Positions 1 through 50,530 of a stretch of DNA of 64,000 nucleotides are shown here, piece after piece (the stretch's first letter is position 1; each line of letters starts with the position of its first letter). The notes beneath the pieces are model-generated. The model was not told where the DNA came from. It worked only from the letters and a program-made list of their open reading frames with translations, and searched no databases. A program made the translations under genes and the position numbers. Location: NCBI RefSeq assembly GCF_058153355.1, contig NZ_CM177019.1; one strand, given 5' to 3'.

Positions 1-424
1 GAATACCGATGGTATAAACGAACAGGATCAGGCCAAATTCCTGAATAACATGCAGCATATCGCTACTTAATGTCATCCCCGCCTGAGAAACAAAATGGCC
101 GACGATGATCCCACCAAACAGCACGCCGCCAATACCTAATCCTATGCCGCGAAATTTGACGTTGCCGATAAACAAACCGACGACTGCCACCAAAGCCAGA
201 ATACTGACCGTTAATGCTATATCACTCATCGTCCATTTCTCTTGAGATAACATTTTAATTGCTACGGATTATGGCTGAATCGGTGAAGCAGATTTGCCTT
301 ATAGCGCACATTATCACGGGAAAGAACGTGCCGAAATATCTTAAACAGGCGAAATTTAACGCTTTGTTGAGTAAGAAAGACAAAAAAAGCCCCACCAGAA
401 TGGTGGGGCAAAGAGAATAGCTAG

Positions 425-853
425 TTAGCTATTTAACGCGGGACGTTCGCTGATAGCGATACGCTGCGCTGCGATGGGTTCAGGCTCATTACGAATTAAA
501 TCAATATGCAGTAAACCGTTTACGAAGGTTGCACCAGAGACTTCCATATTTTCAGCCAGCGTAAAGCTCAGGCTAAATGGCTGATTCATAAGCCCTTGAT
601 GCAGCCATTTTTTCTCTTCTTTTGGCTGCTCCGGCGTGCCTTTTACGCTCAGGCGCGTACCTTCCAGTTGAATATCTAAATCTTCCTGACGAAAACCTGC
701 CAGCGCAAGGGTAATGCGGTAGTGGTTATCGTCGCTTTTCTCAATGTTGTACGGCGGGAAGCTCTGGCTTTCACCGGCGTTTTGCAGTGCGTTGGCCAGT
801 TTGTCAAAACCGATCCATTGACGCATCAGTGGGGATAAATCGAAGTTACGCAT
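425..853 (-). CDS. ibpB: small heat shock protein IbpB
   Basis: Track ORF 425..892; protein from [13 protein letters not shown] to the C-terminus matches IbpB (142 aa). Start trimmed to the ATG at 851-853. Confidence 0.9.
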
Positions 854-964
854 AGTCATTTCTCCTTCTAAGAAGCGAGTAAGTACCTGCAAATCCGAAG
901 ATTCGCATATGCTCCCTGACGGCGAGCATGGAGATATCAGGCCGCGCCAGGCGGCCTTAGGGAA

Positions 965-1378
965 TTAGTTGATTTCGATACGGCGCGGTTTTTTCGCTTC
1001 CGGAATCACACGTTCGAGATCGATATACAGCAAACCATTTACCAGGTTAGCACCACGAACATGAATGTTCTCAGCTAACTGGAATTTGCGTTCAAAGTTG
1101 CGTTCAGCGATGCCCTGGTACAGATAGGTGCGTTCTTTTTGTTCGTCGGCATGAGCACCTTTCACCACCAACAGATTATCCTGGGCGGTAATTTCCAGTT
1201 CGCTCTCAGCAAAACCAGCCACAGCGATAGCAATGCGGTAATGGTTTTCGTCTACCAGTTCAACGTTATACGGAGGGTAGCCGCCATTACTCTGGCTCTG
1301 GTTGTTTTCTAAGTGGTTAAACAAACGGTCAAATCCAATAGCAGAACGGTAAAGCGGGGATAAATCAAAGTTACGCAT
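965..1378 (-). CDS. ibpA: small heat shock protein IbpA
   Basis: 137 aa ORF, alpha-crystallin-type sHSP paralogous to the adjacent ibpB; length matches IbpA. Confidence 0.92.
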
Positions 1379-1480
1379 AATAAATAGCTCCTGAAATCAG
1401 CGAGAATGTAAGACCTTCCACAATGGACAGGTCAGGTAGCCAGAACACCCATCAGGCGCGTCCTCATCGGCTACGATGTA

Positions 1481-1509
1481 AAAATGGGTCTGGAAATGCA
1501 CTTTTCAAG
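1481..1509 (-). promoter_or_regulatory. sigma32 (heat shock) promoter upstream of ibpA
   Basis: Minus strand reads CTTGAAA, 14 nt spacer, CCCATTTT, matching the sigma32 -35/-10 consensus, about 100 nt upstream of the ibpA start. Confidence 0.55.
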
Positions 1510-1683
1510 CCTTATCAGCGGACTTTTTTTTGCAGTTTATGGTCTATTGCATAGACTGAGGGGGCAGCACGAAACGTTAAAGTGCGATAGCCGCCACAGT
1601 GCGACGTAATGATGATGTTATTTTCAGCAAGGGATCGCTATAACTCATCAGGCCAACACCCACGATCAACAGATGAATTTATT

Positions 1684-2016
1684 ATGATAAGAAATGTGTT
1701 GTTAGCGTTCATGATATGCAGCGGAATGACATTACTCGGAGGATGCTCCAGCGTGATGTCCCATACCGGGGGAAAAGAAGGAACGTATCCCGGCACCCGC
1801 GCCAGCGCCACCATGATTGGCGACGATGAAACCAACTGGGGCACTAAGTCGCTGGCGATTCTCGATATGCCGTTTACCGCTGTGATGGACACGCTTTTAC
1901 TGCCGTGGGATGTGTTCCGCAAAGACAGCTCGGTGCGCTCACGCGTTGAAAAAAGCGAAGCCAACGCGCAAGCCACCAATGCGGTTATTCCACCGGCCAG
2001 AATGCCTGATAACTGA
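1684..2016 (+). CDS. yidQ: small lipoprotein YidQ
   Basis: Internal ATG of track ORF 1609..2016 gives a 110 aa protein with a lipobox (LLGGC); position between ibpA and yidR as in K-12. Confidence 0.8.
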   Translation: MIRNVLLAFMICSGMTLLGGCSSVMSHTGGKEGTYPGTRASATMIGDDETNWGTKSLAILDMPFTAVMDTLLLPWDVFRKDSSVRSRVEKSEANAQATNAVIPPARMPDN

Positions 2017-2017
2017 T

Positions 2018-3268
2018 TTAGCGATCAGTTTCGGTGATCCACAGCTGGCCGCCTTCCATCCACGCTAGCCATCGACCATCCGGCGAGAAGACCACGGCGT
2101 CCGCAGAAGGGGGATTGGCGTGGTTTTCGGTTAAATACTCAACCTCGCCGCTTTGCGCATGGGCGCAAGCAATTCGATTATCCAGCACAAAGCCCAACCA
2201 TTCTCCTGACGGATGCCAGTTAAATGCAGACTGAATATCCGTTTTGTTATGGGTTAACTGGCGCGGCTCGCCGCCCTGTGGCGAGATAAGCCACAGTTGC
2301 ACAATGCCGTTATCATCACGCATTAAAAACGCGATTTGCGTACCCTGCGGATTACAGCGCACCCAGTGGCGCGGGACGTTGACTAACCCCGGATAAGCCC
2401 GATGGTGGGTAAAGGTTAAACGTCGCTGCACGACGCCACGCGGTGGCGCGGGCAGGGTTGTTTCCGTTCCACTTAACGGCGCATCACCTGCTGCTTTCCA
2501 GCCAGCTTCATCTTGCGGTAACTCAACGATGAACAGCTCCGGCACTTTCTCGCCCTTTGGCGAAAGTGTGTCGCCAATAAACGCCAGCGCGTGGTTTCCT
2601 ACCCATCCTTCTTCATAAGCACGATTAATTTCATCACTGCCAGGCTGCGGCGTGGGCGTTGTTTTACTTACCAGTACGCACCAGTGGCTACCGCTGTATT
2701 CACGCGGATGCTGCTTTTGTACGTTGACCGGGCCAAACGGTACCGCAACACTGACGTTGCGCAAATCCAGCGCCGGATCGCGTTCATGCATCACATGGTC
2801 GTTATAGGTAAAGCTCACCATTACACCGTTCGGGCTAAAGACATGTACATGGCTGCCGCCACGCAGCGCCCCTGGCGTATACGGCGCGGTAATATCCATT
2901 GCATCAAGGTTGCTCATCTTGCCGTCTTCAACAATCACGCCTCGACGGTGATGGAAATCGTAATGCCATGTTTCATCAGGATTTTCAGGTCCGTGGATAA
3001 AGACATATTTCTCTGACTTCGGATGAACGGTCACCACGCCGACGTGTGCGCCCTGTGACGCACGGTAGATAACCTCGACCTCACCGGTATGAATATTCAC
3101 ACGTTCAATAGTTTCGCCGGTAAACGACGCCCCAGAAGGACGCACGTCAAATACCAGCCACTGGCTGTCGGGCGTCCAGGTATTGGTATTAGTGAGCAGG
3201 TGATTACGGGGAGCAAAGGTTATCTGTTTCATGGCGTGGTCCTGATACAAAACGGTTTCCGCAATCAT
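2018..3268 (-). CDS. yidR: YidR, beta-propeller-like protein of unknown function
   Basis: 416 aa ORF in the conserved position. An internal ATG at 3232 has a better Shine-Dalgarno (AGGA) and may be the true start. Confidence 0.8.
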   Translation of the reverse strand: MIAETVLYQDHAMKQITFAPRNHLLTNTNTWTPDSQWLVFDVRPSGASFTGETIERVNIHTGEVEVIYRASQGAHVGVVTVHPKSEKYVFIHGPENPDETWHYDFHHRRGVIVEDGKMSNLDAMDITAPYTPGALRGGSHVHVFSPNGVMVSFTYNDHVMHERDPALDLRNVSVAVPFGPVNVQKQHPREYSGSHWCVLVSKTTPTPQPGSDEINRAYEEGWVGNHALAFIGDTLSPKGEKVPELFIVELPQDEAGWKAAGDAPLSGTETTLPAPPRGVVQRRLTFTHHRAYPGLVNVPRHWVRCNPQGTQIAFLMRDDNGIVQLWLISPQGGEPRQLTHNKTDIQSAFNWHPSGEWLGFVLDNRIACAHAQSGEVEYLTENHANPPSADAVVFSPDGRWLAWMEGGQLWITETDR

Positions 3269-3332
3269 ACTTCACAAGGACTTCACTTTCAGACAATAGT
3301 CTTTTGCCATCGTGATGAATGTGAGTGAAAAG

Positions 3333-4433
3333 ATGGAACATTTCGACGTGGCGATTATTGGCCTCGGCCCGGCAGGGTCGGCGTTGGCGCGAAAGTTAGC
3401 AGGCAAAATGCAGGTGATCGCGCTGGATAAAAAGCACCAGTGCGGTACTGAAGGTTTCAACAAGCCTTGCGGCGGTCTGCTGGCACCGGACGCTCAGCGA
3501 TCTTTTATTCGCGATGGACTGACGCTTCCTGTCGATGTGATCGCCAATCCGCAGATTTTCAGCGTCAAAACCGTCGACGTCGCCGCATCGCTTACACGTA
3601 ACTACCAGCGAAGCTATATCAATATTAATCGCCATGCTTTCGACTTATGGATGAAATCGCTGATCCCCGCCAGCGTTGAGGTTTACCACGATAGCCTGTG
3701 CCGGAAAATCTGGCGCGAGGATGATAAATGGCATGTCATTTTTCGCGCAGACGGCTGGGAGCAACACATTACCGCCCGCTATCTGGTCGGTGCCGATGGT
3801 GCAAACTCGATGGTGCGGCGACATCTCTACCCGGATCATCAGATTCGTAAATATGTTGCTATCCAGCAGTGGTTCGCAGAGAAACATCCGGTGCCGTTCT
3901 ACTCCTGCATCTTTGATAATGCGATAACTGACTGTTATTCATGGAGTATCAGCAAAGACGGTTATTTTATCTTTGGCGGTGCCTATCCAATGAAAGACGG
4001 CCAGGCGCGCTTCACGGCGCTAAAAGAGAAAATGAGCGCCTTTCAGTTCCAGTTTGGTAAGGCGGTAAAAAGCGAAAAATGCACGGTGCTGTTTCCCTCA
4101 CGCTGGCAGGATTTTGTCTGCGGTAAGGACAACGCCTTTCTGATTGGTGAAGCGGCGGGATTTATCAGCGCCAGCTCGCTGGAGGGGATTAGCTATGCGC
4201 TGGATAGTGCAGAGATTCTGCGTTCGCTGTTACTGAAGCAGCCGGAGAAGAGCAACGCCGCTTACTGGCGCGCCACCCGCAAACTGCGTTTAAAACTCTT
4301 CGGCAAAATAGTAAAAAGCCGATGCCTGACCGCACCGGCTTTAAGAAAATGGATTATGCGCAGTGGTGTGGCGCATATTCCACAGTTTAAAGATTATCCA
4401 ACGCGCTTCACATCGCCCACCAGCAGGATGTAA
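3333..4433 (+). CDS. cbrA: FAD-dependent oxidoreductase CbrA (YidS)
   Basis: N-terminal Rossmann motif [14 protein letters not shown]. Track ORF starts at 3312 (GTG); start is uncertain between 3312, 3315 and 3333. 3' end overlaps convergent dgoT. Confidence 0.8.
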
Positions 4434-5686
4434 GAGAGCGCGCCAATCAACGCGACGGCGGAGATATAAACCAGTGCAGGCGCGAAACCGTAACCCTGCG
4501 CCAGGTACCCCACCACCAGCGGAACGGTGATGCCGCCCAGACCACCGGCGAAGTTAAACACGCCGCCGGTTAAACCAATCAGCCGCATCGGTGCCAGAGA
4601 AGAGACTAACGACCAGGTAATCGAAGCAAAACCGTTGCCGAAGAATGCCAGCGCCATCAGGCACATAATCATCATCGGATCGTTGGTGTAGTTAGCACCC
4701 ATAATGCAGGTGGAGATCAGCAAACCGCAGATAATCGGCGTTTTACGCGCAAAGCCCAGTGAAAAGCCCTTACGTACCAGCAGATCCGCGACCCAGCCAG
4801 AGAGCAGGACGCCGACAAACGCCGCAAGGAAAGGCACCGTGGTCATAAAGCCCGCTTTCAACGCCGTGATGCCTTTTTCCTGGGTTAAATAGTTCGGGAA
4901 CCAGGTTAAGAAGAACCACAGTGTAGAAGCCACCGCAAATTGCCCAAGATAGACGCCGATCAGTTTACGATGGAACACCAGTTTCCAGTCTTTGGCTGTT
5001 AGCGGCTGACGCGACTCTTTTTTCACTGGCGCATCGCCATCCACCAGACCGCCGCCGTCACGAATGTAATCCAGTTCAGCTTTGCTAATGCCTTTGGTCA
5101 GGCGCGGCGGCTGATAAACCTTAAACCAAATCAGCGACCAGATAATGCCGATACCGCCGGTGACAATGAACACCCAGTGCCAGCTCAACATTTCCTGAAT
5201 CCAGATCAGCAGCGGAGTCAGAAACGCCAGACCGACAAACTGACCAGACGTATAAAAACCCACGGCAGAAGCGCGTTCATGTTCCGGGAACCAGCTGGTC
5301 ACCATCCGGTTATTGGTCGGGAACGCGGGCGCTTCGAAAATACCGGTTATCGCACGCAGACCAATTAATGACATTAAGCCCGTGGCAAAGCCCTGGAATA
5401 ACGTCGCCACTGACCAGCCAAATATCGCAATAAAATAAGTCACGCGAGAACCTACGCGATCTAAAAACCAACCGCCGGGGATCTGACATAAGGTATAAAG
5501 CCAGGCGAAGGCCGAAAATACATAGCCCATTTGCGCTTTGGTAATGCCGAACTCTTCCTGAATATGGGCGGAAGCCACGGCCAGGTTAGCGCGGTCAACA
5601 TAACAAATGACCACCGTAATAAAGATCATCACCAGCGTCAGATAACGCCGACGCCCCGGTTTTGCTGCATTAACGGGAATATCCAT
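4394..5686 (-). CDS. dgoT: D-galactonate:H+ symporter DgoT (MFS)
   Basis: 430 aa from [15 protein letters not shown] matches DgoT; track ORF is extended 15 codons upstream. Confidence 0.92.
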
Positions 5687-5805
5687 AGCGAGCTTTCTCC
5701 AGATTTTGGGCATAGCGAAGCCGCTCACCATGCCCTGTAATGTACAGAGGGTTATATTTTTGTATTGCTGTTTTAGTGCCCGATGAGGGGCTTACGTGGC
5801 AGGAA

Positions 5806-5956: not shown

Positions 5957-7382
5957 TAATGCCAGTCAGTTAAGCAACTGACTGGCTCTTTTTCGGGGCT
6001 GTGGGGTATTTCCAGGGCCTCTCCTTTACCACTCTCGGGAAGGCCCTTTCCCTTCTTGTCGGTAATTTCACAAGTTGTCCCATACTTGCAAGATCGCGCA
6101 TCAGCTCCGGTATACGTCCCGGTGAAGCGCCCTGCAATGTCATCAGCATTCTCATCACCATTCCGCATGATTCTGAGAAACTCAGTTGATTCGGCCAGTA
6201 ACCTTTCAGATGTTCCGCCATTTTAATCATCTGATATCTCACCAGATTATAAGCCAGTAAGACACCCCACAGCTCTTGCTCCACAAGCTCCGGCTTTTTA
6301 CTTCTCAGCGTCAGCCTGCTCAGTTGCATCGTCTGTTTTATCTCCCTGTATCCCAGTTCGATTTCCCAGCGATGACTGTACAGATCCGCCATTTCTCCTC
6401 CGGGGAAGCGCATGGCGTCCGTCATCGACGTCAGCAGATGGCAGACTTTTCCTTTGCGCGTCACGGTCAGCAGGCGGGCTGTCACTTCATTTCCCAGTCC
6501 CGGCCACTTTTTTCGTGCCTGCGGGCTGGTTTTCAGCTTCACCAGATGATCGCCTTTACCCAGTTTTCTGATCTCTTCATATTGCGCTCCCTTTCTGAGA
6601 GGTATCATCCAGTGGCGGTGTTCTCCCGCCAGGCTCCAGGCATTTAACAGTCCCAGTGAGTAATAACCTTTATCCATTAACGTCAGAGTGTTATCGCCGG
6701 TTTGTTCTATAAGTTGCTCAGCAAGCTCATTTTCGCTGTTCTTCATCGTGCCGAAGGCTGCAGCCGTCAGCAGATGGCTGGTCAGTTCCATCTGGCAGAC
6801 CATTTTGACCTGCGGGTAGAGCGCCGGGTTCCCGGCATGTGTCTGGCGGGGGAAGGCTGCATCGTTCTCTGGTGTATCCGGTGTGCGCCAGAACACACCA
6901 TCGATGGCCAGCAGGGTCAGGCCGCACCAGTGCGGATGCGGCGTGGCGTTATGCCAGAGCTGCGCTGTTTTCGTGAACACGCGGCGGACAGCCTCACTTC
7001 CCAGGCGCTGGCGGGCCTGAATAACGGCACTGGGGGCAACGAAGGGGCGATTGCCCGGCAGCATGATGTCCAGGCGATTCACAATCTGGTGAAGAGGTTC
7101 TTTACGCTCAAGCGCCATGCCAACAATACACCAGACCATCATTTCGAGGGGAAGACGGCGCTTGCGTAGCGTTACAGTACCTGATTCGGCAAGGCAACGA
7201 GAGATGAGTTCGGGGTCGAGGTAATCCCCCAGAGAAGTCAGTGGGTTACGCAGAGAATCGTAACGGGATACCAGATCAAGAGCCTGTCCAATGTGCATAA
7301 AAAAATCCGGAAACAAGTGAGCGTTTCCGGATTCTTACACAGCCACTGGATCGGTCAACTGATCCTTAACTGATCGGCATTA
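5957..7382 (-). mobile_element. IS4 insertion sequence, complete (1426 bp)
   Basis: Terminal inverted repeats TAATGCCAGTCAGTTAAG (5957-5974) and reverse complement of TAATGCCGATCAGTTAAG (7365-7382); single transposase ORF inside; length equals canonical IS4. Confidence 0.92.
5970..7298 (-). CDS. insG: IS4 transposase
   Basis: 442 aa from [20 protein letters not shown] matches the IS4 transposase (DDE family); track ORF 5970..7316 has 6 extra N-terminal codons. Confidence 0.88.
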
Positions 7383-7490: not shown

Positions 7491-8017
7491 ATGCAAAACA
7501 GAAAATGGATTTTGACCTCGCTGATAATGACTTTTTTCGGCATCCCCATACTGGCGCAATTACCAACTGGCGCACGGTTGGCGGTAACGATCAGGAGATC
7601 CAGACCTGGCAACGCCCGGAAGACTCTGGCAGCCAGACAGTGATGCAATCGCAGGTCATGAAAAATGTCCGCATGATCTCGCCGCAGGAAACCGAAGTGG
7701 CAAGCATGATGGAGGGAATGATTAAAGTTGTTGCCGAATACCGTAATACAAACAACTCAATAGGCTACACCTTCCGCTATTACGCAACACAAATGAACGC
7801 CGATAAAAATATAAAACTGCTAGCTATTAACGGTATTGCACCGACTGCGGAAAATATTCGTAACGGCAAATATCCGTATATCGTCGATGCCTTTATGGTA
7901 ACGCGGGAAAATACTACGTCAGAAACACAAAAACTGGTCGAATGGTTTTTAACGCCGCAGGGGCAGAGTCTGGTGGAAGATGTGGGCTATGTGCCGCTGT
8001 ATCCAACAATGAAATAA
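7491..8017 (+). pseudogene. yzgL: yzgL-like internally deleted PstS-like binding-protein gene
   Basis: ATG at 7491 encodes a signal-peptide-like start (MQNRKWILTSLIMTFFGIPILA) that runs out of frame after ~50 codons. Frame +2 (track ORF 7505..8017) encodes only the C-terminal half of a protein paralogous to the downstream 330 aa lipoprotein. Confidence 0.6.
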
Positions 8018-8042
8018 CGCTCGAGAGAAAGGAATCAGCGCA

Positions 8043-9035
8043 ATGAATAAATTCACCGGTGTTTTACTATTAGGTACGGCGTTACTGGCGGGATGTGTCG
8101 ACCGGGAAGGGTACTATAACAGCGTCAGGGAAGAAGAGAGTCATGGACTGACGTCTCTGCGGGGGCAACCTGAATTACGTTACAGCGATGATTGGTCAAG
8201 ATGGCCGAGAGTGTACGGCGCTACAGCCTTATACCCGCTGTATGCCTCCGCGTATTATGAATTAGTACCCGAGCCAAAAGATAAGGATCGAACCTCGCTG
8301 GCCTGGCAGGCGTATGGTTTGCAACAAACCCGAACAGCTGAAGCCTACGATAGTCTGATCAAGGGTACCGCGACGGTTATTTTTGTTGCACAACCGTCGG
8401 AAGGACAGAAAAAACGTGCAGAAGAAGCAGGCGTTAAACTGAAATATACCGCGTTTGCCCGCGAAGCCTTTGTCTTTATCGTTGATATCAAAAACCCGGT
8501 TAATTCACTTAGCGAACAGCAAGTCAAAGACATTTTTAGCGGTAAAGTGAGTCGCTGGAATAAAGTGGGCGGCGGTGACGAAAGTATAAAAGTCTGGCAG
8601 CGGCCAGAAGATTCTGGAAGCCAAACGGTTATGAAGGGACTGGTTATGCAAGATACTCCAATGCTGCCAGCCAAAAAATCCACTGTTATCGATCTTATGG
8701 GCGGTTTAATTACCGAAGTCGCCGACTACCAAAACACACCATCTTCCATTGGATACACCTTCCACTATTACGTCACACGTATGAATGACAATATGCTCAA
8801 AATGCGCAAACAGATCAAACTGCTGGCTATAAATGGCGTTGCACCTACAGAGGAAAATATCCGTAACGGCACTTATCCGTACATAATTGATGCTTATATG
8901 GTGACGCACGAAAACCCTACGCTGGAAACGCAGAAATTCGTCGACTGGTTTTTAAGCCCGCAGGGACAGCAATTGGTAGAGGATGTGGGGTATGTGCCGA
9001 TTCATGACGCATCATACGAATCATCAGTGCAATAA
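8043..9035 (+). CDS. putative lipoprotein with PstS/phosphate-binding-protein-like domain
   Basis: 330 aa ORF with Shine-Dalgarno AAGGA, lipobox LLAGC, and C-terminal half about 60% identical by eye to the upstream pseudogene. Family assignment is by motif impression only. Confidence 0.7.
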   Translation: MNKFTGVLLLGTALLAGCVDREGYYNSVREEESHGLTSLRGQPELRYSDDWSRWPRVYGATALYPLYASAYYELVPEPKDKDRTSLAWQAYGLQQTRTAEAYDSLIKGTATVIFVAQPSEGQKKRAEEAGVKLKYTAFAREAFVFIVDIKNPVNSLSEQQVKDIFSGKVSRWNKVGGGDESIKVWQRPEDSGSQTVMKGLVMQDTPMLPAKKSTVIDLMGGLITEVADYQNTPSSIGYTFHYYVTRMNDNMLKMRKQIKLLAINGVAPTEENIRNGTYPYIIDAYMVTHENPTLETQKFVDWFLSPQGQQLVEDVGYVPIHDASYESSVQ

Positions 9036-9637
9036 TGATGAATAAAATCAGACTTTATATTCCTCCGTTAATTCTTGGTTTTGTTATTGTGCCGTTGTTG
9101 GTGTGGCCGACGGTGGTTGCGCTGGCTGCTTCTGTTATCACGCTGAGTTTTCTGGGAGAGATACTGTTCTCTATCCCGCTCATGATCAGGCATATTTCGC
9201 TTCTGCAATTACAACTATGGTTATCGGCTGAATATGCGCTTTTCTGCTGTGCAATGGTGGGCGTTGGTTGGCAATTTGCTCGTATAACTCAATCCGAATC
9301 GAAAAGCAGACTGCATTGTTGGCTGGTATTTGCACCAGTTTATTTCTGGTTGCTCCTGTGGAATATCATTTTCTATGTCGCGCCAGCGAATATTGCGTTG
9401 CTGGAGAATATGCGCAGTTTCTTTCTGACAGTTGTCTGGCTCCCACTGAATTTTTCGCCATTTTGGTCTCAACCGTGGATTGACTTTGTCGGTCCAATAA
9501 GCGCACAGCTTGGTTTTGCGTTGGGATATTATTGCCAGTGGCGTAGCAAAAATAGAAGCCAGATACGGAAGTGGAGTGAGTGGGGAACGTGCCTGAGTTT
9601 TGTTACGTTGGGTATGATGGCGTGGGCTTTGCGGTAA
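9035..9637 (+). CDS. polytopic inner-membrane protein of unknown function
   Basis: 200 aa ORF whose start overlaps the upstream stop (TAATG), implying translational coupling; several hydrophobic segments rich in W/F/L. Confidence 0.6.
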   Translation: MMNKIRLYIPPLILGFVIVPLLVWPTVVALAASVITLSFLGEILFSIPLMIRHISLLQLQLWLSAEYALFCCAMVGVGWQFARITQSESKSRLHCWLVFAPVYFWLLLWNIIFYVAPANIALLENMRSFFLTVVWLPLNFSPFWSQPWIDFVGPISAQLGFALGYYCQWRSKNRSQIRKWSEWGTCLSFVTLGMMAWALR

Positions 9638-12762: not shown

Positions 12763-13521
12763 ATGAAACAAACACAACGTCACAACGGTATTATTGAACT
12801 GGTTAAACAGCAGGGTTATGTCAGCACCGAAGAACTGGTGGAACACTTCTCCGTCAGTCCGCAGACTATTCGTCGTGACCTCAACGAGCTGGCGGAGCAA
12901 AACCTGATCCTGCGTCACCATGGCGGCGCGGCACTGCCTTCCAGTTCGGTTAACACGCCGTGGCACGATCGTAAGGCCACCCAGACCGAAGAAAAAGAGC
13001 GTATTGCCCGCAAAGTGGCGGAGCAAATTCCTAACGGCTCGACGCTATTTATTGATATCGGCACCACGCCGGAAGCGGTGGCGCACGCGCTGCTTAATCA
13101 CAGCAATTTGCGCATTGTGACCAACAATCTCAACGTCGCTAACACGCTGATGGTAAAAGAAGATTTTCGCATCATTCTTGCAGGTGGCGAATTACGCAGC
13201 CGCGATGGTGGGATCATTGGCGAAGCGACGCTCGATTTTATCTCCCAGTTCCGCCTTGATTTCGGGATTCTGGGGATCAGCGGCATCGATAGCGACGGCT
13301 CGCTGCTGGAGTTCGATTACCACGAAGTTCGCACCAAACGCGCTATTATTGAGAACTCGCGCCACGTTATGCTGGTTGTCGATCACTCGAAATTTGGCCG
13401 TAATGCGATGGTCAATATGGGCAGCATCAGCATGGTCGATGCCGTCTACACCGACGCCCCGCCACCAGCGAGCGTGATGCAGGTGCTGACAGACCATCAT
13501 ATTCAGCTGGAGCTGTGCTGA
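12763..13521 (+). CDS. glpR: glycerol-3-phosphate regulon repressor GlpR (DeoR family)
   Basis: 252 aa; N-terminal helix-turn-helix; conserved position after glpG. Confidence 0.93.
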   Translation: MKQTQRHNGIIELVKQQGYVSTEELVEHFSVSPQTIRRDLNELAEQNLILRHHGGAALPSSSVNTPWHDRKATQTEEKERIARKVAEQIPNGSTLFIDIGTTPEAVAHALLNHSNLRIVTNNLNVANTLMVKEDFRIILAGGELRSRDGGIIGEATLDFISQFRLDFGILGISGIDSDGSLLEFDYHEVRTKRAIIENSRHVMLVVDHSKFGRNAMVNMGSISMVDAVYTDAPPPASVMQVLTDHHIQLELC

Positions 13522-15101
13522 TCCTGCACGGCTTCCCACGTCAGACCAAAACGCGCCAGGTATTTGCGTAGCCGATCCGCGTCGTTGACGCTGGCTTTGC
13601 CCTGGCGCGAAACATCAAAGAGTTCACGCCCGGCAGCGGAAAGCGATTTTGCCTGACGGCAGATAGCGATAACGTGTTCCAGTTGCAGCCGATCAAAGAG
13701 GTCGATGTTTTCCGCTTCAGTGCCCAGTAGCTGCTTAAGCGCAGAAGAGCGGCTATCCTGCCAGTTGTAGCGTAGACGGTTTATCTCATCTTCTACGGTT
13801 TCAAGGGTGATACGCCCACTATCGGCAAACGTCGCCATGCGTGTGACGCTGGCAGAAAGTTCGCGAAAGTTACCGCGCCATGCTGCCTGAGATGATGTCG
13901 CAAAGGCCAGCCAGGCGCGCCTCGCTTCGGTGTTAAAACGCACGCTGTCGCCGGTAAGTGAGGCGTGGCGCTCCACTTCATAATCCAGGTTCGGTTCAAT
14001 ATCTTCCTGGCGCTGGCGTAGACCCGGCAGGGTGAAGGTCCAGAGATTGATCCGCGCGTACAGGTCTTCGCGAAATTTGCCTTCGGCAACCAGCTGACGC
14101 AAATCGCGCACCGTTCCGGCGATCAGCTGAAAATCACTGCTCACCAGGCGATCGCTACCAAACGGGTAAAAGGTTTTCTCTTCAATGGCTTTTAGCAACA
14201 TTGCCTGTTCGTCTGCGCCCAGTTCGCCAATCTCATCAAGAAACAACATGCCGCCGTTGGCGCTGCGTAATAACCCTTCACGAGATTCCCGCGCCCCGGT
14301 AAACGCGCCTTTCACATGACCAAACAGCGCGGACATGGCGGTATCGCCACGCAGAGTGGCGCAGTTCACTTCCACAAACGCGCCGCTAAACTGATGCCGC
14401 GCCTGTTTTAACTCGAAGATGCGTCGTGCCAGAAACGACTTTCCCGCACCGGTTGGGCCGTTGAGCAGGATCGGTGCGCGGGATCTAATCGCCACTTTTT
14501 CGATCTGCTCAATCATGCGGTTGAAGTGGGCGTTACGCGTGGCAATGCCGGATTTGAGGAAATCGAGGGTTTGCTGGCGTTCTTCGGCAAAGCGGCTGGC
14601 AATAGCGTTATAACGGCTTAAATCGAGATCGATAATCGTCACCGCACCAGGGCTGTTGGGCTGTTCTTTTTTACGCGGTGGCGAAGATTGTATTAACCTG
14701 GCGGGCAGGTAACGTGCTTCCGCCAGCAGAAACCAGCAAATCTGCGCGACGTGGGTACCGGTGGTGATGTGAATTAAATAGTCTTCTTTATCAGGTTGGA
14801 ATGCGTAACCACGGGCAAAATCATGCAGGCAGGCGTAAACCTCCTCGAAATCCCATGGGTTATGCAGTTCAATCTCAACGCCCACCACTTCTGTTTCTGG
14901 CGAAACATTGGCGATATCGCGTTTAAGCGTTTCAAACAGCGAGCGTGAGCGGACGTCGTGCAACAATTCCAGTCGATCGATGACTAACGATTCTTGCTGG
15001 CATAGACAGAGTGACGGACGCCATTTCGACCATCGCTGACTGCCGCGCCCGGCATAATCCAGTACGGTGCCGACAAAGCCAAAAGCCACTGTTTTACGCA
15101 T
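13503..15101 (-). CDS. rtcR: sigma54-dependent transcriptional activator RtcR
   Basis: 532 aa; AAA+ sigma54-interaction domain (GPTGAGKS Walker A, GAFTGA motif); divergent from rtcBA; 3' end overlaps glpR by 19 bp. Confidence 0.9.
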   Translation of the reverse strand: MRKTVAFGFVGTVLDYAGRGSQRWSKWRPSLCLCQQESLVIDRLELLHDVRSRSLFETLKRDIANVSPETEVVGVEIELHNPWDFEEVYACLHDFARGYAFQPDKEDYLIHITTGTHVAQICWFLLAEARYLPARLIQSSPPRKKEQPNSPGAVTIIDLDLSRYNAIASRFAEERQQTLDFLKSGIATRNAHFNRMIEQIEKVAIRSRAPILLNGPTGAGKSFLARRIFELKQARHQFSGAFVEVNCATLRGDTAMSALFGHVKGAFTGARESREGLLRSANGGMLFLDEIGELGADEQAMLLKAIEEKTFYPFGSDRLVSSDFQLIAGTVRDLRQLVAEGKFREDLYARINLWTFTLPGLRQRQEDIEPNLDYEVERHASLTGDSVRFNTEARRAWLAFATSSQAAWRGNFRELSASVTRMATFADSGRITLETVEDEINRLRYNWQDSRSSALKQLLGTEAENIDLFDRLQLEHVIAICRQAKSLSAAGRELFDVSRQGKASVNDADRLRKYLARFGLTWEAVQDQHSSS

Positions 15102-15235
15102 CTTAGATATCCTTATAAAAGACGATATTTCATTATCGGCGAATTGGCTTTGCGGGAAATCTCCGTTTACGGACGTACAGATTTTATCTATTTAAAAACA
15201 ATGAATTAAAAAATTAAGCTGCTTATTTAATTTTC

Positions 15236-15251
15236 TGGCACGACGGTTGCA
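15236..15251 (+). promoter_or_regulatory. sigma54 promoter of rtcBA
   Basis: TGGCAC-N5-TTGCA, a perfect -24/-12 sigma54 element, ~40 bp upstream of the rtcB start. Confidence 0.7.
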
Positions 15252-15289
15252 ATTATCTGGACAGCAAACAACGAAAAGAGAAAAACAAA

Positions 15290-16507
15290 ATGAATTACGA
15301 ATTACTGACCACTGAAAATGTCCCGGTAAAAATGTGGACCAAAGGCGTACCGGTAGAAGACGATGCGCGTCAGCAACTGATAAATACGGCGAAGATGCCG
15401 TTTATTTTCAAACATATTGCGGTAATGCCTGATGTACATCTGGGTAAAGGTTCCACCATTGGTAGCGTGATCCCGACCAAAGGGGCGATTATTCCGGCGG
15501 CGGTGGGGGTAGATATCGGTTGTGGAATGAACGCACTGCGAACTGCGTTAACGGCGGCTGACCTGCCTGAAAACCTGGCGGAGTTGCGTCAGGCGATTGA
15601 AGCTGCCGTGCCGCACGGACGTTCCAATAATCGTAGCCGTCGTGATAAAGGCGCATGGGAGAATCCGCCTGTTAACGTCGATGCGAAATGGGCTGAGCTT
15701 GAAGCCGGTTATCAGTGGTTAACGCAAAAATATCCGCGTTTCCTTAATACCAATAACTATAAACACCTGGGAACGGGAAACCACTTTATTGAAATCTGTC
15801 TTGATGAGTCGGACCAGGTGTGGATTATGCTGCACTCCGGTTCACGCGGAATCGGTAATGCCATCGGGACTTACTTTATCGATCTGGCGCAAAAAGAGAT
15901 GCAGGAAACGCTTGAAACGTTGCCATCGCGTGACCTGGCGTACTTTATGGAAGGTACGGAATATTTTGACGATTACCTGAAAGCGGTGGCCTGGGCGCAG
16001 CTTTTTGCCAGCCTTAACCGCGATGCGATGATGGAAAATGTGGTAACGGCGTTGCAGAGCGTTACGCAGAAAACGGTAAGACAGCCACAAACGCTGGCGA
16101 TGGAAGAGATCAACTGTCACCACAACTATGTGCAAAAAGAACAGCACTTTGGCGAAGAGATCTATGTGACGCGTAAAGGCGCGGTGTCTGCGCGTGCTGG
16201 TCAATATGGAATTATTCCCGGTTCGATGGGGGCGAAAAGCTTTATTGTCCGTGGGCTGGGAAATGAAGAGTCGTTCTGTTCGTGCAGCCACGGTGCCGGG
16301 CGGGTAATGAGCCGTACTAAAGCGAAAAAACTGTTCAGCGTGGAAGATCAAATTCGTGCTACCGCGCATGTGGAATGCCGTAAAGATGCCGAAGTGATCG
16401 ACGAAATCCCGATGGCGTATAAAGATATCGACGCGGTGATGGCGGCACAAAGCGATCTGGTGGAAGTAATCTACACCCTGCGTCAGGTGGTGTGTGTAAA
16501 AGGATAA
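15290..16507 (+). CDS. rtcB: RNA-splicing ligase RtcB
   Basis: 405 aa; conserved Asp75/Cys78 (DIGCG) and GNHF motif. Three residues shorter than my recollection of the K-12 protein (see findings). Confidence 0.9.
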   Translation: MNYELLTTENVPVKMWTKGVPVEDDARQQLINTAKMPFIFKHIAVMPDVHLGKGSTIGSVIPTKGAIIPAAVGVDIGCGMNALRTALTAADLPENLAELRQAIEAAVPHGRSNNRSRRDKGAWENPPVNVDAKWAELEAGYQWLTQKYPRFLNTNNYKHLGTGNHFIEICLDESDQVWIMLHSGSRGIGNAIGTYFIDLAQKEMQETLETLPSRDLAYFMEGTEYFDDYLKAVAWAQLFASLNRDAMMENVVTALQSVTQKTVRQPQTLAMEEINCHHNYVQKEQHFGEEIYVTRKGAVSARAGQYGIIPGSMGAKSFIVRGLGNEESFCSCSHGAGRVMSRTKAKKLFSVEDQIRATAHVECRKDAEVIDEIPMAYKDIDAVMAAQSDLVEVIYTLRQVVCVKG

Positions 16508-17527
<1,020 letters not shown>

Positions 17528-17569
17528 TGCAGAGATGTAAGCCGGATCTGGCGCGTTAACCGGCTAAAC

Positions 17570-20281
<2,712 letters not shown>

Positions 20282-38766: not shown

Positions 38767-38804
38767 AAAACAGGAGGCGAAGGTGCCTCCCGTTTTATTT
38801 TGTG
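38767..38804 (+). terminator. rho-independent terminator after envZ
   Basis: aaaacaggaggc-gaa-ggtgcctcccgtttt stem-loop followed by a T-rich run. Confidence 0.5.
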
Positions 38805-38927
38805 CACTCAGTATCTACTGAATGAATACGGTTTCAGACATCGGCACCATACGAAGTAAAGTGTACTGTAAGCTGATTGCAGGCTAGCGTATCCTGATTA
38901 GTAAAAGCACACTAAAGGAATAGCTTG

Positions 38928-40211
38928 ATGCAACTTACCAACGAAGAACAAGTACAGATTGCTCGTATAAAAGAAAAAATCCCACGCATTGCCGCACTGG
39001 ATCCTGAATGTAAGTTATTCGGTTCTGAAGGTTGGAAATATCAATGGCCGAAGCCTGCCAGCGAGGCGGAAATAGCTTCCTGGGAGAAAAAACATAGCGT
39101 CACTTTGCCACGGGAATATCGAATTTTTCTTCGCTATATCGCTAATGGCGGTCCGGCACATGCCTACGGTCTTGAATCTTTAGGCGGTACAGATATTTAT
39201 GGCGATATAACAAAAGAAAGCCCTGTACCGCTTTATATGACGCAGCAGGATGTTGATGTGTTGAATGCAGGCCGTACAGAAGATGATGAAGAATATAGTT
39301 TTTTTGACGGCGCATTGACCATTCTCACCCTGGGATGTACTTATGATATTTGCCTGGTGGTGACGGGGCAGTATCGCGGAAGGTTAATGCTGACTGATGG
39401 TGATGAAGATTATCCGTTTGATTTTATATATGATAAAAATTTCCTCAACTGGTATGAACGCTGGCTGGACGATTTTATTGCTGGCATGAGTATGAAGGGT
39501 TTCGATAGAAGTTTGCCAGGAACGCAAATTCAACTGCGTGAGTGGTTTTTAACTGAGAAAATCCCGGATTTACGTAGATCCATTTTATTCTCGCTATGCC
39601 GTTTTCCACAGATAGAACCCGAAACATTTGCCCTTTGGGAACATGTTTGCCGCACAGAGAATGATAAAGAATTGTGTGAAGAGGCATTCATAAGATTACG
39701 CCAAAAAAAAGTTTCTTGTGCTGCAGATATTTTTCGACTCTATTTTACAATGCCAGATGAATTACGTGATATTGCTATTAAAGATCTCCGTTTTGCCTGT
39801 AGAGATAGTGTGGTGAATATTGAGGATTATATTCATTCACTGTTAATAATAATGCCTGAACTTGACGATGACACTCTATCCTCAGCTGTCTTTGCTGTAC
39901 GAGAAACAGAGTATAATAAATATGATACTTTTCTGCCGCTTCTCGAACGTATCACTGATGACCGTCAGCAAACATTATTGTGGGCGATGAGTAAGGCGCC
40001 TGATTTCAATGAAAGCCGAGGATTCGTTGAGTTGGTATTACCGCTTTTTGCATCATCAAAGATGGAGAATGTAAGGAAGGCTATTTTGTTGCTCATTGAA
40101 GTTAAAGATAATCGTATTCCACCATTGGTTGATGAAGCTGCAACTCGTTTCCCTGAACTGACCATTTTACGAGAAAACTACTATCTCAGGACGTGGGGAC
40201 ATAAGCCATAA
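38928..40211 (+). CDS. SMI1/KNR4 (SUKH-1)-like protein with C-terminal helical extension; putative immunity-type protein
   Basis: 427 aa from the ATG at 38928 with Shine-Dalgarno AAGGA. N-terminal motif EIASWEKKHSVTLPREYRIFLRYIANGG matches the LPxxYxxFLxxxNGG hallmark of the SUKH family. Visibly AT-rich; no counterpart at this site in K-12. Confidence 0.65.
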   Translation: MQLTNEEQVQIARIKEKIPRIAALDPECKLFGSEGWKYQWPKPASEAEIASWEKKHSVTLPREYRIFLRYIANGGPAHAYGLESLGGTDIYGDITKESPVPLYMTQQDVDVLNAGRTEDDEEYSFFDGALTILTLGCTYDICLVVTGQYRGRLMLTDGDEDYPFDFIYDKNFLNWYERWLDDFIAGMSMKGFDRSLPGTQIQLREWFLTEKIPDLRRSILFSLCRFPQIEPETFALWEHVCRTENDKELCEEAFIRLRQKKVSCAADIFRLYFTMPDELRDIAIKDLRFACRDSVVNIEDYIHSLLIIMPELDDDTLSSAVFAVRETEYNKYDTFLPLLERITDDRQQTLLWAMSKAPDFNESRGFVELVLPLFASSKMENVRKAILLLIEVKDNRIPPLVDEAATRFPELTILRENYYLRTWGHKP

Positions 40212-40248
40212 ATTAATGGCTCAGAAATGATCTAACGCGGAGAGAAAT

Positions 40249-40779
40249 ATGATCAGGGAACATATTCAGCAAGCGATAAATAATAGGTTAGCATTTGATG
40301 GCCCATTCAATGTTGTTCCTGAACCTGCAAGCACTGCGTTTGATAGCCGGATCCCGACATTGAAAAACGGTGTCTGGCAGAAGGCCAGCCCTATGTTGCA
40401 GGCGCGTTTTGCACATTGTGGACGTTGGTTAAGCGCTACACATGGAAGCTGGCTAAGTATAAGTGACATGGAAACGCTTTGGCAGGAACACATAGAAGAT
40501 ACGTTTCTTGATGAAATCAAAATGAATGCTGTAGCTTCAAGTGATAATTGGGATAACCATGCCTTGGGACTATTTCGTTCTCATCGCCTGTCACTTTTTG
40601 CCGGTAGTGATTACATTTATGAAATGGTTTTTCTCCTTTGGCTAGATAGTACCGTTGAGCCAGAGGTCTGGGTTTATGACTGCAATGGGGAATCACGTTA
40701 TAAAGATCTTAATGATTACCTGAATGCATATATTAATGATGACGTAAGCGCCTGTGAGCGCTCCTGGCGAGTAGAATGA
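40249..40779 (+). CDS. hypothetical protein (island gene 2)
   Basis: 176 aa ORF with Shine-Dalgarno GGAGAG; AT-rich; stop overlaps the next start (ATGA). No family recognised. Confidence 0.55.
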   Translation: MIREHIQQAINNRLAFDGPFNVVPEPASTAFDSRIPTLKNGVWQKASPMLQARFAHCGRWLSATHGSWLSISDMETLWQEHIEDTFLDEIKMNAVASSDNWDNHALGLFRSHRLSLFAGSDYIYEMVFLLWLDSTVEPEVWVYDCNGESRYKDLNDYLNAYINDDVSACERSWRVE

Positions 40780-41402
40780 ATAGCCCCCCTTGCCCCTTTG
40801 ATCCACAAACCGCACATTACCTCGGTACAGTGCAAATCCACTACACCTCAACCACCTTCAACGCTGCCGTTAAGCATTATACCTATCACATTAAAAAGCG
40901 TTTTAAAGGGTTTAAATGGGGAATTGGTACCGCTGGCTTATTGGCTATATTGCCCATGATCCCACAATGGTTGAAACCTTCTCATGACTTTAAACTCAAC
41001 GCAATCAGTACGTTAATTCTTCTATTAATGTTGCCACTCCTCTTATCAATGTTCCTGTTAATCAGCAGAAGAATTAACGATTTTAAGTCAAAAACAAAGC
41101 AAGTTACTTTTACGAAACCCGTGCGTTATGCGTTTTATTTCGAGGGGATTGTTTTTTATGAATCTCATCAGCAGGGCATACTTCGCTGGGAAGATTTTTA
41201 TAGCATTGACTATGAAGAAGATTATTTGTGGCTTTTTCTGCATTTACCGAAGAGTTTTCCCAGAGAAGCGACGAAAGCGTTTTGCGATATTTTCATTCCC
41301 GCCAGCGCGATAAAAGCGCAGCCTGAACTGGATACGTTTTTTCGTGAAACACGCCACTATCTGGATTATCTGTTTGTCCCGTTTAATTCTGACAGAAAAT
41401 AA
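40776..41402 (+). CDS. hypothetical membrane protein, two predicted TM helices (YcxB-like topology)
   Basis: 208 aa; hydrophobic segments WGIGTAGLLAILPMIPQWL and ISTLILLLMLPLLLSMFLLI followed by a ~100 aa soluble domain; translationally coupled to island gene 2. Confidence 0.55.
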   Translation: MNSPPCPFDPQTAHYLGTVQIHYTSTTFNAAVKHYTYHIKKRFKGFKWGIGTAGLLAILPMIPQWLKPSHDFKLNAISTLILLLMLPLLLSMFLLISRRINDFKSKTKQVTFTKPVRYAFYFEGIVFYESHQQGILRWEDFYSIDYEEDYLWLFLHLPKSFPREATKAFCDIFIPASAIKAQPELDTFFRETRHYLDYLFVPFNSDRK

Positions 41403-41435
41403 AAAATCCCCCGTATCTGGTGAAACGGGGGATTT
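41403..41435. terminator. bidirectional terminator between island gene 3 and pck
   Basis: aaaaaatcccccgt-atctggtga-aacgggggattt stem-loop with A/T runs on both sides. Confidence 0.55.
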
Positions 41436-41454
41436 CGTCGCTTAACTTATCGGA

Positions 41455-43455: not shown

Positions 43456-45180
43456 ATGGATAACGTTGAACTTTCACCCGCAACACGCTGGGGGATGATT
43501 GCTACCGGATTACTTCAGGGTCTGGTTTGCTACCTACTGATCGCCTGGCTTGCCGGAAAAAATCTCAGTTGGATTGTTTATGGCGTGCCTGCGACCGTCG
43601 CGTTTTCATCCGTTTTACTCTTCTCCGTGATCTCCTTTAAACAGAAGCGCCTTTGGGGATGGCTGGCGCTGGTGTTTATTGCCACGCTGGGAATGAGCGG
43701 CTGGCTGAAGTGGCAAACTGATGGCATGAACCCCTGGAGAGCTGAAAAGGCGCTTTGGGATTTTGGTTGCTATCTGCTGCTGATGGCAATGTTGTTGCTA
43801 CCGTGGATACAACAAAGCCTTCGCATCCGCAATGACAGTAGCCGCTATCGCTATTTTTACCAGTCAGTATGGCATAACGTACTTATATTACTGGTGATTT
43901 TTCTCGCCAATGGCCTGACGTGGCTGGTGCTATTACTGTGGAGTGAGTTGTTTAAACTTGTTGGCATCACGTTTTTCAAAACGCTCTTTTTTGCAACCGA
44001 CTGGTTTATTTATCTCACGTTAGGTCTGGTTACCACACTGGCGGTGATCCTCGCGCGTACACAGTCACGTTTAATCGACTCTATTCAAAAGTTGTTCACG
44101 TTAATCGCCACTGGGTTGCTGCCGTTAGTATCATTGCTAACCCTGATGTTTATCATCACCCTGCCGTTTACGGGCCTGAGCGCGATTTCTCGCCACATCT
44201 CCGCCGCCGGGTTGCTGTTGACGCTGGCCTTTTTGCAATTGATTTTAATGGCTATTGTCCGCGATCCGCAAAAAGCGTCACTTCCCTGGACGGGGCCGTT
44301 GCGTTGCCTGATTAAAACCGCTCTGCTGGCTGCTCCGCTGTATGTGTTCGTCGCCGCCTGGGCGTTATGGCTGCGGGTCGCTCAGTACGGCTGGACTGTC
44401 GACCGCTTGCAGGGCACGCTGGCGGTGCTGGTGTTACTGGTATGGTCGCTGGGGTATTTTGTCAGTATCGTCTGGCGTAAAGGGCAAACCCCTCTTGTTC
44501 TTCAGGGCAAAGTGAACCTTGCGGTTTCGTTATTGGTGTTGGTAATACTGGTGCTTCTTAATTCGCCGGTGCTGGATAGTATGCGCATTAGTGTGAACAG
44601 TCATATGGCACGTTATCAGAGCGGCAAGAACACGCCAGATCAGGTAAGTCTCTACATGCTCGAACAGAACGGTCGCTATGGACGTGCGGCGCTTGAGTCG
44701 CTGAAAAGCGATGCCGAGTATATGAAAGACCCGAAACGCGCACGGGATCTGCTGATGACGTTAGATGGAGAGCAACATCTTCAGGAACAGGTATCGGAAA
44801 AAGTATTAGCCGAAAATGTGTTAATTGCCCCAGGCTCTGGCAAACCGGATACGGCATTCTGGTCGGCCTTAATCCAGGATCGCTATAACGTGATGACCTG
44901 TATTGAAAAAGACGCCTGCGTACTGGTCGAGCAAGATCTGAATAGTGATGGTCAGGCGGAGCGGATCCTGTTTGCTTTTAATGATGACAGAGTCATTGTC
45001 TATGGCTTTGACCCGGCCAGAAAAGAATGGGACGCGCTTGATATGAGTTTACTTCCGCGCCAAATAACGAAAGAAAAATTACTCGCTGCTGCGAAGGATG
45101 GAAAACTGGGGACGAAGCCTAAAGCATGGTGTGATCTGACGGTAGATGGTGAAACGCTGGAAATAAACCTAAGTAAGTGA
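43456..45180 (+). CDS. yhgE: inner-membrane protein YhgE
   Basis: 574 aa polytopic membrane protein; conserved position next to pck. Confidence 0.88.
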
Positions 45181-45250
45181 CAATGCGTATTTGATTTTTT
45201 ATCGGATACGACGCTTTATCTTACCAACAATAACTTGCGAATTATTGCAT

Positions 45251-45279
45251 AGGCCTGGTAAGCGCAGCGCATCAGGCCA
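45251..45279. repeat. REP palindromic unit
   Basis: aggcctggtaagcgcagcgcatcaggcc between yhgE and hslO. Confidence 0.45.
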
Positions 45280-45324
45280 TTACGTCGTAAAATCCGGCAG
45301 AGCACTCTCTGCCGGACATACTCA

Positions 45325-46209
45325 TTAATGAACTTGCGGATCTGCCGGAGACGCGTTGTTGCGGATTTCAGCAATATCCATCGCATTGAACAGATAGTGG
45401 TTACCGCAGTAATCACAATGCATGTCAATTTCGCCTTCTTCCGCCAGAATGCTATCCACTTCTTCATCCGGCAGCGTTTTTAGCGCGTCGGCGCAACGTT
45501 CACGCGAGCAGGTGCATTTGAACTCCACATCCTGCGGATCGTAAACCGTCACCTCTTCTTCGTGATACAAACGCCACAACACTTCGTTTGCCGGTAAGGT
45601 CAGCAGTTCTTCGGTTTTGATGGTTTCGGTTAGCGTTGCCAGGTGGTCAAAGTCGTCCTGCTGGGCATTTTGCGCAGGCATTACCTGCAACAACATACCG
45701 CCTGCAGCCGGTTTGCCGTCTACGTCGCCGGTGCGAATAAACAGGCGCGTCGGCAGCTGTTCAGAACGCATAAAGTAATCTTCCAGGCAGGCCGCCAGGG
45801 TATCACCTTCCAGACCAACCACGCCCTGATAGCGTTCGCCTTCGCTCGGAGTAATGGTGATCACTACGTAACCATTGCCGACCAGCGTTTTCAGGTCGGC
45901 ATTTTCTGGAATTTCGCCCTGCACGCGCGCCACACCGCGCATCTGCTGGTTGTTGTTACCATTAATAACCGCCAGATTCATCGGTCCGTCGCCTTGCAGT
46001 TGTACGGTGATATCACCATCAAACTTCAGCGTAGCGGTTAACAGGCTGGTCGCAACCAGCAGTTCTGCCAGCACGTTTTTAACGGGCTGCGGATAATCGT
46101 GATTCTCAAGGATCTGTTGCAGGGTTTCCGAAACGGTTACCAGTTCGCCGCGAACGGCAAAGTTTTCAAACAGATAGCGATGTAATTGGTCATGTTGCGG
46201 CATAATCAT
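45325..46209 (-). CDS. hslO: redox-regulated chaperone Hsp33
   Basis: C-terminal zinc centre CTCSRERC...CDYCGNHY; N-terminus MIMPQHDQL (start may be 6 nt downstream). Confidence 0.93.
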
Positions 46210-46227
46210 CTCTCTTGCAGGTGACAG

Positions 46228-46629: not shown

Positions 46630-46639
46630 GGCGTCTCCT

Positions 46640-47308: not shown

Positions 47309-47372
47309 GAGGGAAATCTCCAGAGTGAAGCAATTTGCGCGACAGGGTAGCATAACCTGCCGCGCAAACGTG

Positions 47373-50388: not shown

Positions 50389-50530
50389 ATGCGTGAAGTT
50401 TGCCTGATGCACAATGCTTATCAGGCCTGCGCGGCTCCTGCAATATATTGATTTTTATCGATATTTTCAGACGGATAACGTGTTCACGCCGTATCCGGTA
50501 TAAATAAAGTGACACTTTGTCAGCAAACAG

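Follow-up and report, generated by a model that had tools for sequence, protein, structure and literature searches.

The divergent genes rtcR and rtcB raise the question of whether a perfect sigma-54 promoter between them indicates an intact RNA-repair system. The stretch of DNA analyzed here (64 kb, below "the window") was described in a first-pass annotation as carrying an exact TGGCAC-N5-TTGCA match at 15236-15251, upstream of rtcB and in keeping with the divergently encoded activator RtcR, and this match was taken as an internal control for an intact regulatory architecture. We examined the promoter, the elements around it, and the genes that it is expected to serve.

Organization of the rtc locus

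The gene order is that of K-12, glpR-rtcR/rtcBA-malT, with the following components.

12763-13521, plus strand: glpR-like DeoR regulator
13503-15101, minus strand: rtcR, sigma-54 enhancer-binding activator, 532 aa, full length (open reading frame and Pfam)
15102-15289: rtcR-rtcB intergenic region, 188 bp
15290-16507, plus strand: rtcB, RNA 3'-phosphate/5'-OH ligase, 405 aa versus the usual 408 (PF01139, E 1e-129)
16511-17527, plus strand: rtcA, RNA 3'-terminal phosphate cyclase, 338 aa (PF01137, PF05189)
17570-20275, minus strand: malT

The identification of the neighboring genes proved correct: PF01139 and PF01137 genes lie downstream of the motif, and the divergent gene encodes a sigma-54 activator. 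RtcR consists of a CARF-like N-domain (PF06956, RtcR/CARF, 8e-85), an AAA+ sigma-54 interaction domain (PF00158, Sigma54_activat, 4e-50), and a C-terminal region, with the AAA lid matching PF25601 (AAA_lid_14). Its alignment with K-12 RtcR is gap-free at 95% identity, and both the Walker A motif (GPTGAGKS) and the sigma-54-contacting GAFTGA loop are intact. RtcA is 97% identical to its K-12 counterpart and keeps the catalytic His308 in its SCH context; its reading frame is also open from an ATG at 16508, and the rtcB/rtcA junction is the same as in K-12.

Using window positions 13400-17600 as the query, we found that at least 80% of the rtc locus is retained in 4837 of 5426 complete E. coli genomes. 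In approximately 590 genomes (~10%) most of rtcR-rtcBA is missing, and only remnants are present, annotated as a truncated cyclase or regulator. The rtc operon is often lost and is dispensable in nature; thus, purifying selection on the locus is not absolute.

The sigma-54 element

The intergenic region contains the following elements, three of which are candidates or resemblances.

15102-15138, no strand assigned: conserved block adjoining the rtcR start codon, candidate RtcR enhancer (UAS), 100% identical to K-12, from comparative analysis
15123-15138, no strand assigned: inverted repeat CGATA-TTTCAT-TATCG, best candidate RtcR site, centered ~131 bp upstream of the start
15196-15208, plus strand: IHF-like site AAACAATGAATTA, one mismatch to WATCAANNNNTTR, centered ~60 bp upstream of the start
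15236-15251, plus strand: sigma-54 -24/-12 element TGGCAC-GACGG-TTGCA, with GG at 15237-15238 and GC at 15249-15250
15262, plus strand: predicted transcription start C, preceded by A15261 (Bonocora rule and ApC primer)
15262-15289, plus strand: 5' leader, 28 nt, with the purine-rich, Shine-Dalgarno-like AAAGAGA at 15275-15281

The sequence TGGCACGACGGTTGCA occupies 15236-15251 of the plus strand in the context ...ttttcTGGCACgacggTTGCAattatc..., and is made up of TGGCAC (15236-15241), the spacer GACGG (15242-15246), and TTGCA (15247-15251). All 11 specified bases are present, and exactly 10 bp separate the GG and GC dinucleotides. An extended consensus, which Barrios et al. are said to have proposed in 1999 as YTGGCACG-N4-TTGCW, is satisfied as well (C-TGGCACG-ACGG-TTGCA). 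The pattern TGGCACNNNNNTTGCA has one exact match when both strands of the 64-kb window are searched.

The expected number of exact TGGCAC-N5-TTGCA matches in 64 kb is 0.05, at least one match having been obtained in 5 of 100 dinucleotide-preserving shuffles of the window. When up to two mismatches were allowed, 25 sites were found versus 27.2 expected by chance; therefore, the exact site alone is informative. The motif has the orientation of rtcB; it lies 38 bp upstream of the rtcB ATG and 135 bp from the start codon of the divergent rtcR. This placement between the two genes brings the chance expectation far below the window-wide figure: according to our own arithmetic, an 11-base specification over ~170 positions on one strand gives ~4e-5 expected matches. 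The only site with a single mismatch, TGGCGCTGCCTTTGCA at 54255-54270 (minus strand), lies inside the hof gene cluster; it was dropped because it is absent from the K-12 sigma-54 ChIP-seq sites in the main text of PMC4591121. The rpoN and ihf genes are outside the window.

Identity with the K-12 promoter

Positions 15235-15251 match the K-12 sigma-54 ChIP-seq site OS35, CTGGCACGACGGTTGCA, in 17 of 17 bases. According to Bonocora et al. 2015 (PMC4591121), OS35 is located upstream of rtcB (b3421), its start is predicted at a distance of 28 bp from the gene, and the promoter is marked as one with experimental confirmation in EcoCyc. Citing Genschik 1998, both PMC9650030 and PMC5175333 (Engl et al. 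2016) attribute to the rtcBA promoter an RtcR UAS, an IHF site, and a dependence on sigma-54 and RtcR. The K-12 promoter, rtcBp (Genschik et al. 1998, J Biol Chem 273:25516, as cited in PMC5175333), shares with the window the 17-nt motif, the 28-nt leader, the divergent rtcR, and the flanking glpR and malT.

The 188-bp intergenic region can be aligned to K-12 without gaps, at 95.2% identity. None of the nine substitutions, eight at 15140-15194 and one at 15258, falls in a putative functional block. Identity to K-12 is 100% over positions 15195-15257 (63 bp, IHF-like site to -12 element) and over the 38 bp adjoining rtcR, whereas the coding genes of the locus are only 92-95% identical at the DNA level. 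Among the complete E. coli genomes, a 70-bp promoter core is present in 4850 of 5426, and the identity is at least 95% in 4530 of the 4851 best matches. A close relative, E. coli EC42405 (locus L015, 1961-1976), has the natural variant TGGCACGGCGGATGCA, with A in place of the first T of TTGCA and an altered spacer.

[quoted passage not shown] This gives C15262 and a 28-nt leader, in agreement with the published 28-bp distance between the start and rtcB (PMC4591121). The dinucleotide A15261-C15262 fits the ApC that primed the native PrtcBA at -1/+1 (Kotta-Loizou et al. 2022, PMC9650030). The start ~12 nt downstream of the GC element that had been anticipated for this site agrees with the predicted C15262. 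No Rfam family was found in the rtcB leader.

It should be noted that a consensus match does not imply strength, since the native K-12 rtcBA promoter is reported to be very weak in vitro (PMC9650030). This weakness would also fit another reading, namely that rtcBA is transcribed mainly from a different promoter (of sigma-70 type, or by read-through) and that the sigma-54 site is occupied and largely inert. RtcR-independent induction and possible alternative promoters have been reported for E. coli and Salmonella (PMC9650030), and many E. coli sigma-54 sites are transcriptionally inactive (PMC4591121). However, no sigma-70-like -35/-10 pair was found on either strand at 14900-15500, versus 1.2 expected, and read-through is excluded by the divergent orientation of the upstream gene. 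Reporters in K-12 and Salmonella depend on RtcR and rpoN from the same sequence, and the hexamers and their spacing are strictly conserved beside rtcR in nine taxa. We consider transcription mainly from another promoter very improbable. A terminator scan of the same segment (14900-15500) yielded one terminator-like hairpin, inside rtcB and at chance level.

The sigma-54 reading of 15236-15251 is, by contrast, close to certain: judged by its sequence identity, the site is almost surely the -24/-12 element of PrtcBA and the ortholog of the confirmed K-12 promoter. The promoter itself is already known and well characterized, and is ordinary.

Comparison of nine rtcR loci

Eight further rtcR loci were obtained through RtcB homologs, making nine with the window: a Salmonella-like locus (with rsr and YrlA/YrlB), Enterobacter, K. 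oxytoca, Pantoea, Cronobacter, Serratia, Kosakonia, and the beta-proteobacterium Chitinilyticum. In all nine, the best sigma-54 match has 9-11 of the 11 bases and is situated on the operon strand, beyond the divergent rtcR. The -24 and -12 hexamers are kept, whereas the N5 spacer varies. The -24 element lies 134-137 bp from the rtcR start codon in the eight Enterobacterales loci, including the window, and 148 bp away in Chitinilyticum, irrespective of the gene that comes after the promoter.

These comparisons bear on the possibility that the motif is a functionless chance occurrence. The 5 of 100 shuffled windows with an exact match are the point in favor of that reading, which is set against the position, the strand, and the distances to both genes, all exactly as in the characterized K-12 promoter, and against the conservation of the motif in nine taxa whose surroundings are otherwise unalignable. 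We regard the probability of chance occurrence as negligible, and this reading appears to be effectively refuted by the comparative data.

The conserved sigma-54 promoter has a counterpart with experimental support in Salmonella. The Salmonella-like locus, L004, carries the published rsr promoter sequence TGGCACGCTGGTTGCAAT, which was found to be sigma-54-bound (ChIP) and rpoN-dependent (PMC3844500). The Salmonella Typhimurium rsr-yrlBA-rtcBA promoter (rsrp; PMC3844500, PMC9879122), for which sigma-54 binding and rpoN/RtcR dependence were shown experimentally, has the same -24/-12 hexamers, a distance of ~134-135 bp to the rtcR start, the rtcR-proximal block, and the IHF-like site. It differs from the window in the N5 spacer (GCTGG versus GACGG) and in that rsr (Ro60-like) and two Y-RNA-like elements, YrlA and YrlB, come before rtcBA under its control. 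The YrlA/YrlB assignment in the Salmonella-like locus was confirmed by Rfam, whereas neither rsr nor Y RNAs were found among the open reading frames and Rfam matches of the window.

Several leaders in the comparison set are long. In K. oxytoca (L007, 3327-3500), a 174-nt leader extends from the sigma-54 promoter to rtcB and starts with ATGGCTAATC, which corresponds to the first rsr codons of the Salmonella-like and Enterobacter loci; this leader seems to be what is left of an rsr/Y-RNA segment that was deleted. In Cronobacter, Kosakonia, and Chitinilyticum, 325-446 nt separate the promoter from the first called gene (Band_7), at L010 2040-2364, L013 2041-2368, and L012 1836-2281, and the Chitinilyticum leader has a tRNA-like Rfam match (L012 2005-2069, 39.6 bits). 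These leaders may contain a so far undescribed non-coding RNA belonging to the Rtc operon.

Candidate enhancer and IHF-like site

The Salmonella-like, Enterobacter, and K. oxytoca loci have the block at 15102-15138 in almost unchanged form, whereas the next ~55 bp are unalignable. It contains the ribosome-binding region of rtcR (AAGGA on the minus strand). We infer this block to be the enhancer for RtcR, overlapping the translation start of rtcR; such an overlap suggests possible autoregulation by RtcR. Related GATA/TATC sites adjoin the rtcR start codon in all nine loci. In five more distant loci, palindromes of the form TTATC-N6-GATAA are found at the same offset, and the Chitinilyticum counterpart of CGATA-N6-TATCG is GATATTAAATTATCG. 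The coordinates of the GATA/TATC blocks are 3318-3360 in L008, 1890-1930 in L010, 3210-3250 in L011, 1675-1715 in L012, and 1892-1932 in L013. Paired GATA/TATC palindromes at a fixed distance of ~135 bp from the -24 element are a candidate for the RtcR enhancer across Enterobacterales. No sequence of an RtcR site was found in PMC9650030 (main text, methods, and supplements), in PMC9879122, or in the accessible literature, and the repeat at 15123-15138 provides a concrete candidate binding site for footprinting.

The IHF-like site at 15196-15208 is identical to K-12. Sites of this type, with 0-1 mismatches, are centered 24-35 bp upstream of the -24 element in eight of the nine loci, and an IHF site of the rtc promoter is mentioned in PMC9650030. 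Taken together, the comparison delimits a compact module of constant length that comprises the candidate enhancer, the IHF-like site, and the -24/-12 element.

A deletion in the active-site loop of RtcB

The length of RtcB (405 aa) is accounted for by one feature within the gene.

15767-15775, plus strand: a single CTGGGAACG where relatives have two tandem copies, an in-frame loss of 9 bp

RtcB was aligned to the K-12 and E200086 proteins. The deletion removes Leu-Gly-Thr, changing HLGTLGTGNHF to HLGTGNHF (LGTLGTGNH to LGTGNH). A different start or stop codon as the source of the shorter protein was rejected, the rtcB/rtcA junction being as in K-12 and the 9-bp deletion internal. The nearest relatives (98-99% identity) carry both copies of the repeat. 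The deletion was seen in none of the 120 closest cluster representatives, all of which have the double motif, and a search of 5426 complete E. coli genomes gave no match spanning the deletion junction. The exact 405-aa protein is nevertheless present in NCBI (EGO8351887.1, HFG3508640.1; assembly GCA_043012465.1) and on five contigs, and therefore it is not an artefact of one assembler. On these sequence comparisons, we consider the deletion to be real, rare, and recent.

The deletion sits directly before the active-site residues Asn167 and His168. His168 is a ligand of Mn2, whereas Asn167 positions the 5'-OH and contacts the GTP phosphates; in the N167A mutant, guanylylation is 70-fold slower and sealing is abolished (PMC8051266, PMC9745838). 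The affected loop, LG(T/S)LG(S/T/A)GNH, is conserved in the solved RtcB structures from Thermus, Pyrococcus, and animals. In the window, the RtcR domains, the RtcA histidine, and the metal, GTP, and nucleophile residues of RtcB are all in place, but the LGxLGxGNH loop before Asn167/His168 reads LGTGNH instead. Asp75, Cys78, Asn167, His168, His185, His281, and His337 are present, shifted by -3 after the deletion.

Structure prediction pointed in the same direction, as a weak sign of a deletion effect. AlphaFold models had a mean pLDDT of 83.3 and a pTM of 0.87 for K-12 RtcB, versus 74.9 and 0.82 for the deleted protein, which has new segments below 50 pLDDT at the active-site regions 47-56 and 333-339; the five models scatter widely. 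NCBIfam was uninformative, as both the deleted and the wild-type RtcB are below every curated cut-off.

The deletion matters for the promoter because RtcR-dependent induction strictly requires catalytically active RtcB (PMC9650030). It is conceivable that the promoter is genuine and that the circuit is broken, i.e., that RtcB without Leu-Gly-Thr is dead or strongly impaired and the promoter stays silent under inducing stresses. This possibility, which we take seriously although we hold it to be the less probable outcome, would dispute only the conclusion that the system is intact, and not the identity of the promoter. It is consistent with the contraction of the 9-bp repeat in a loop conserved from Thermus and Pyrococcus to animals and invariant in the 120 close relatives, with the absence of the junction from complete genomes and the two copies in the nearest relatives, and with the location of the deletion next to the residues for 5'-OH strand contact and Mn2 coordination (PMC8051266, PMC9745838). 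The fall in mean pLDDT (weakly) and the loss of most of the locus from ~10% of E. coli genomes are in line with it. Conversely, every known catalytic residue is kept; one LGT copy is left, and the residues flanking GNH are therefore unchanged; the models place the deleted stretch in a loop, and proteins can sometimes accommodate a shorter loop; the rtcB reading frame and rtcA are intact; and AlphaFold is unreliable for mutational effects. On balance, serious impairment of this RtcB allele is plausible but short of probable.

Other features of the window

Rfam matched ROSE_2 alone in the whole window, with no Y RNA, and a tRNA search found none. The ROSE_2 RNA thermometer is located in the ibpA leader (1372-1444, minus strand, 96 bits) and is ordinary and expected. 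An IS4-family transposase (5970-7316, minus strand) separates the flanks 1-5731 and 7505-9637. To its left is the ibpB-ibpA(ROSE_2)-yidQ-yidR-cbrA-dgoT block, found at ~3.86 Mb in K-12, and to its right is a disrupted PstS-like gene next to glpD, at ~3.56 Mb in K-12. None of the complete E. coli genomes contains the dgoT-IS4 junction, which reflects either an inversion of ~300 kb mediated by IS4 or a join made at a repeat during assembly.

Between envZ and pck, the window carries a 2.66-kb islet (38797-41453) that K-12 lacks and that only 19 of the 5426 complete E. coli genomes share. Its coding content is a 428-aa SMI1/KNR4 protein (SUKH-1, immunity-protein-like) together with two open reading frames of 176 and 208 aa, neither of which had a Pfam match.

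The identity to K-12 is mosaic, being ~92-96% across glpD-rtc-mal-gnt-feo (9500-32000) and 97-100% across igaA-mrcA-hof-aroKB-damX (45000-60500). The RtcA sequence has also been deposited under the name E. fergusonii, and the rtc-malT region is ~93% identical to most genomes. An assignment to a non-coli Escherichia, considered from the latter value, was rejected because mrcA is 95-100% identical to all E. coli. These identities indicate an otherwise typical E. coli in which the left half of the window is occupied by a divergent, probably recombined, haplotype.

Proposed mechanism and implications

The mechanism has been established for K-12 and Salmonella and is extended to this strain by sequence identity. 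The sigma-54 holoenzyme would bind GG (-24) and GC (-12) and form a stable closed complex that does not open by itself. RtcR, encoded divergently, would occupy an enhancer ~100-135 bp upstream, putatively 15102-15138, with IHF bending the intervening A/T-rich DNA at about -60, and would reach the holoenzyme through the resulting loop. A signal derived from RNA damage, which needs active RtcB and sometimes RtcA, would lift the self-inhibition by the CARF-type N-domain, upon which the AAA+ ring of RtcR would hydrolyze ATP and remodel the holoenzyme. Transcription from C15262 would then produce an mRNA consisting of the 28-nt leader and rtcB-rtcA. Both RtcR and the cis elements seem to be intact in this strain, and RtcB would be made without three residues of the invariant active-site loop.

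With general sigma-54 promoters (glnAp2, pspAp, nifH), this arrangement shares GG/GC elements spaced by one helical turn, an AAA+ activator with GAFTGA, and, putatively, a remote enhancer and an IHF-assisted loop. RtcR differs from the general activators in its CARF-type sensor and in its input, which consists of RNA-damage signals and the operon's own products (PMC9650030), whereas the general activators respond to a kinase or a small metabolite. Another difference is that the candidate rtc enhancer appears to overlap the translation-start region of the activator's own gene.

The statement that the regulatory architecture is intact therefore stands in part. It applies to the cis elements and to RtcR; however, it does not extend to the function of the system, since induction through RtcR needs active RtcB and RtcB is altered here. 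Being part of the induction loop, the altered RtcB also means that the promoter match is no valid internal control for a working system in this strain.

One possible, rather unlikely, interpretation is that the strain is a natural "open-loop" Rtc mutant, in which a slipped-strand loss of LGT inactivates RtcB and leaves the promoter, the enhancer, and the activator permanently uninduced. If true, the strain would represent an early stage in the decay of a locus that ~10% of E. coli genomes have already lost for the most part.
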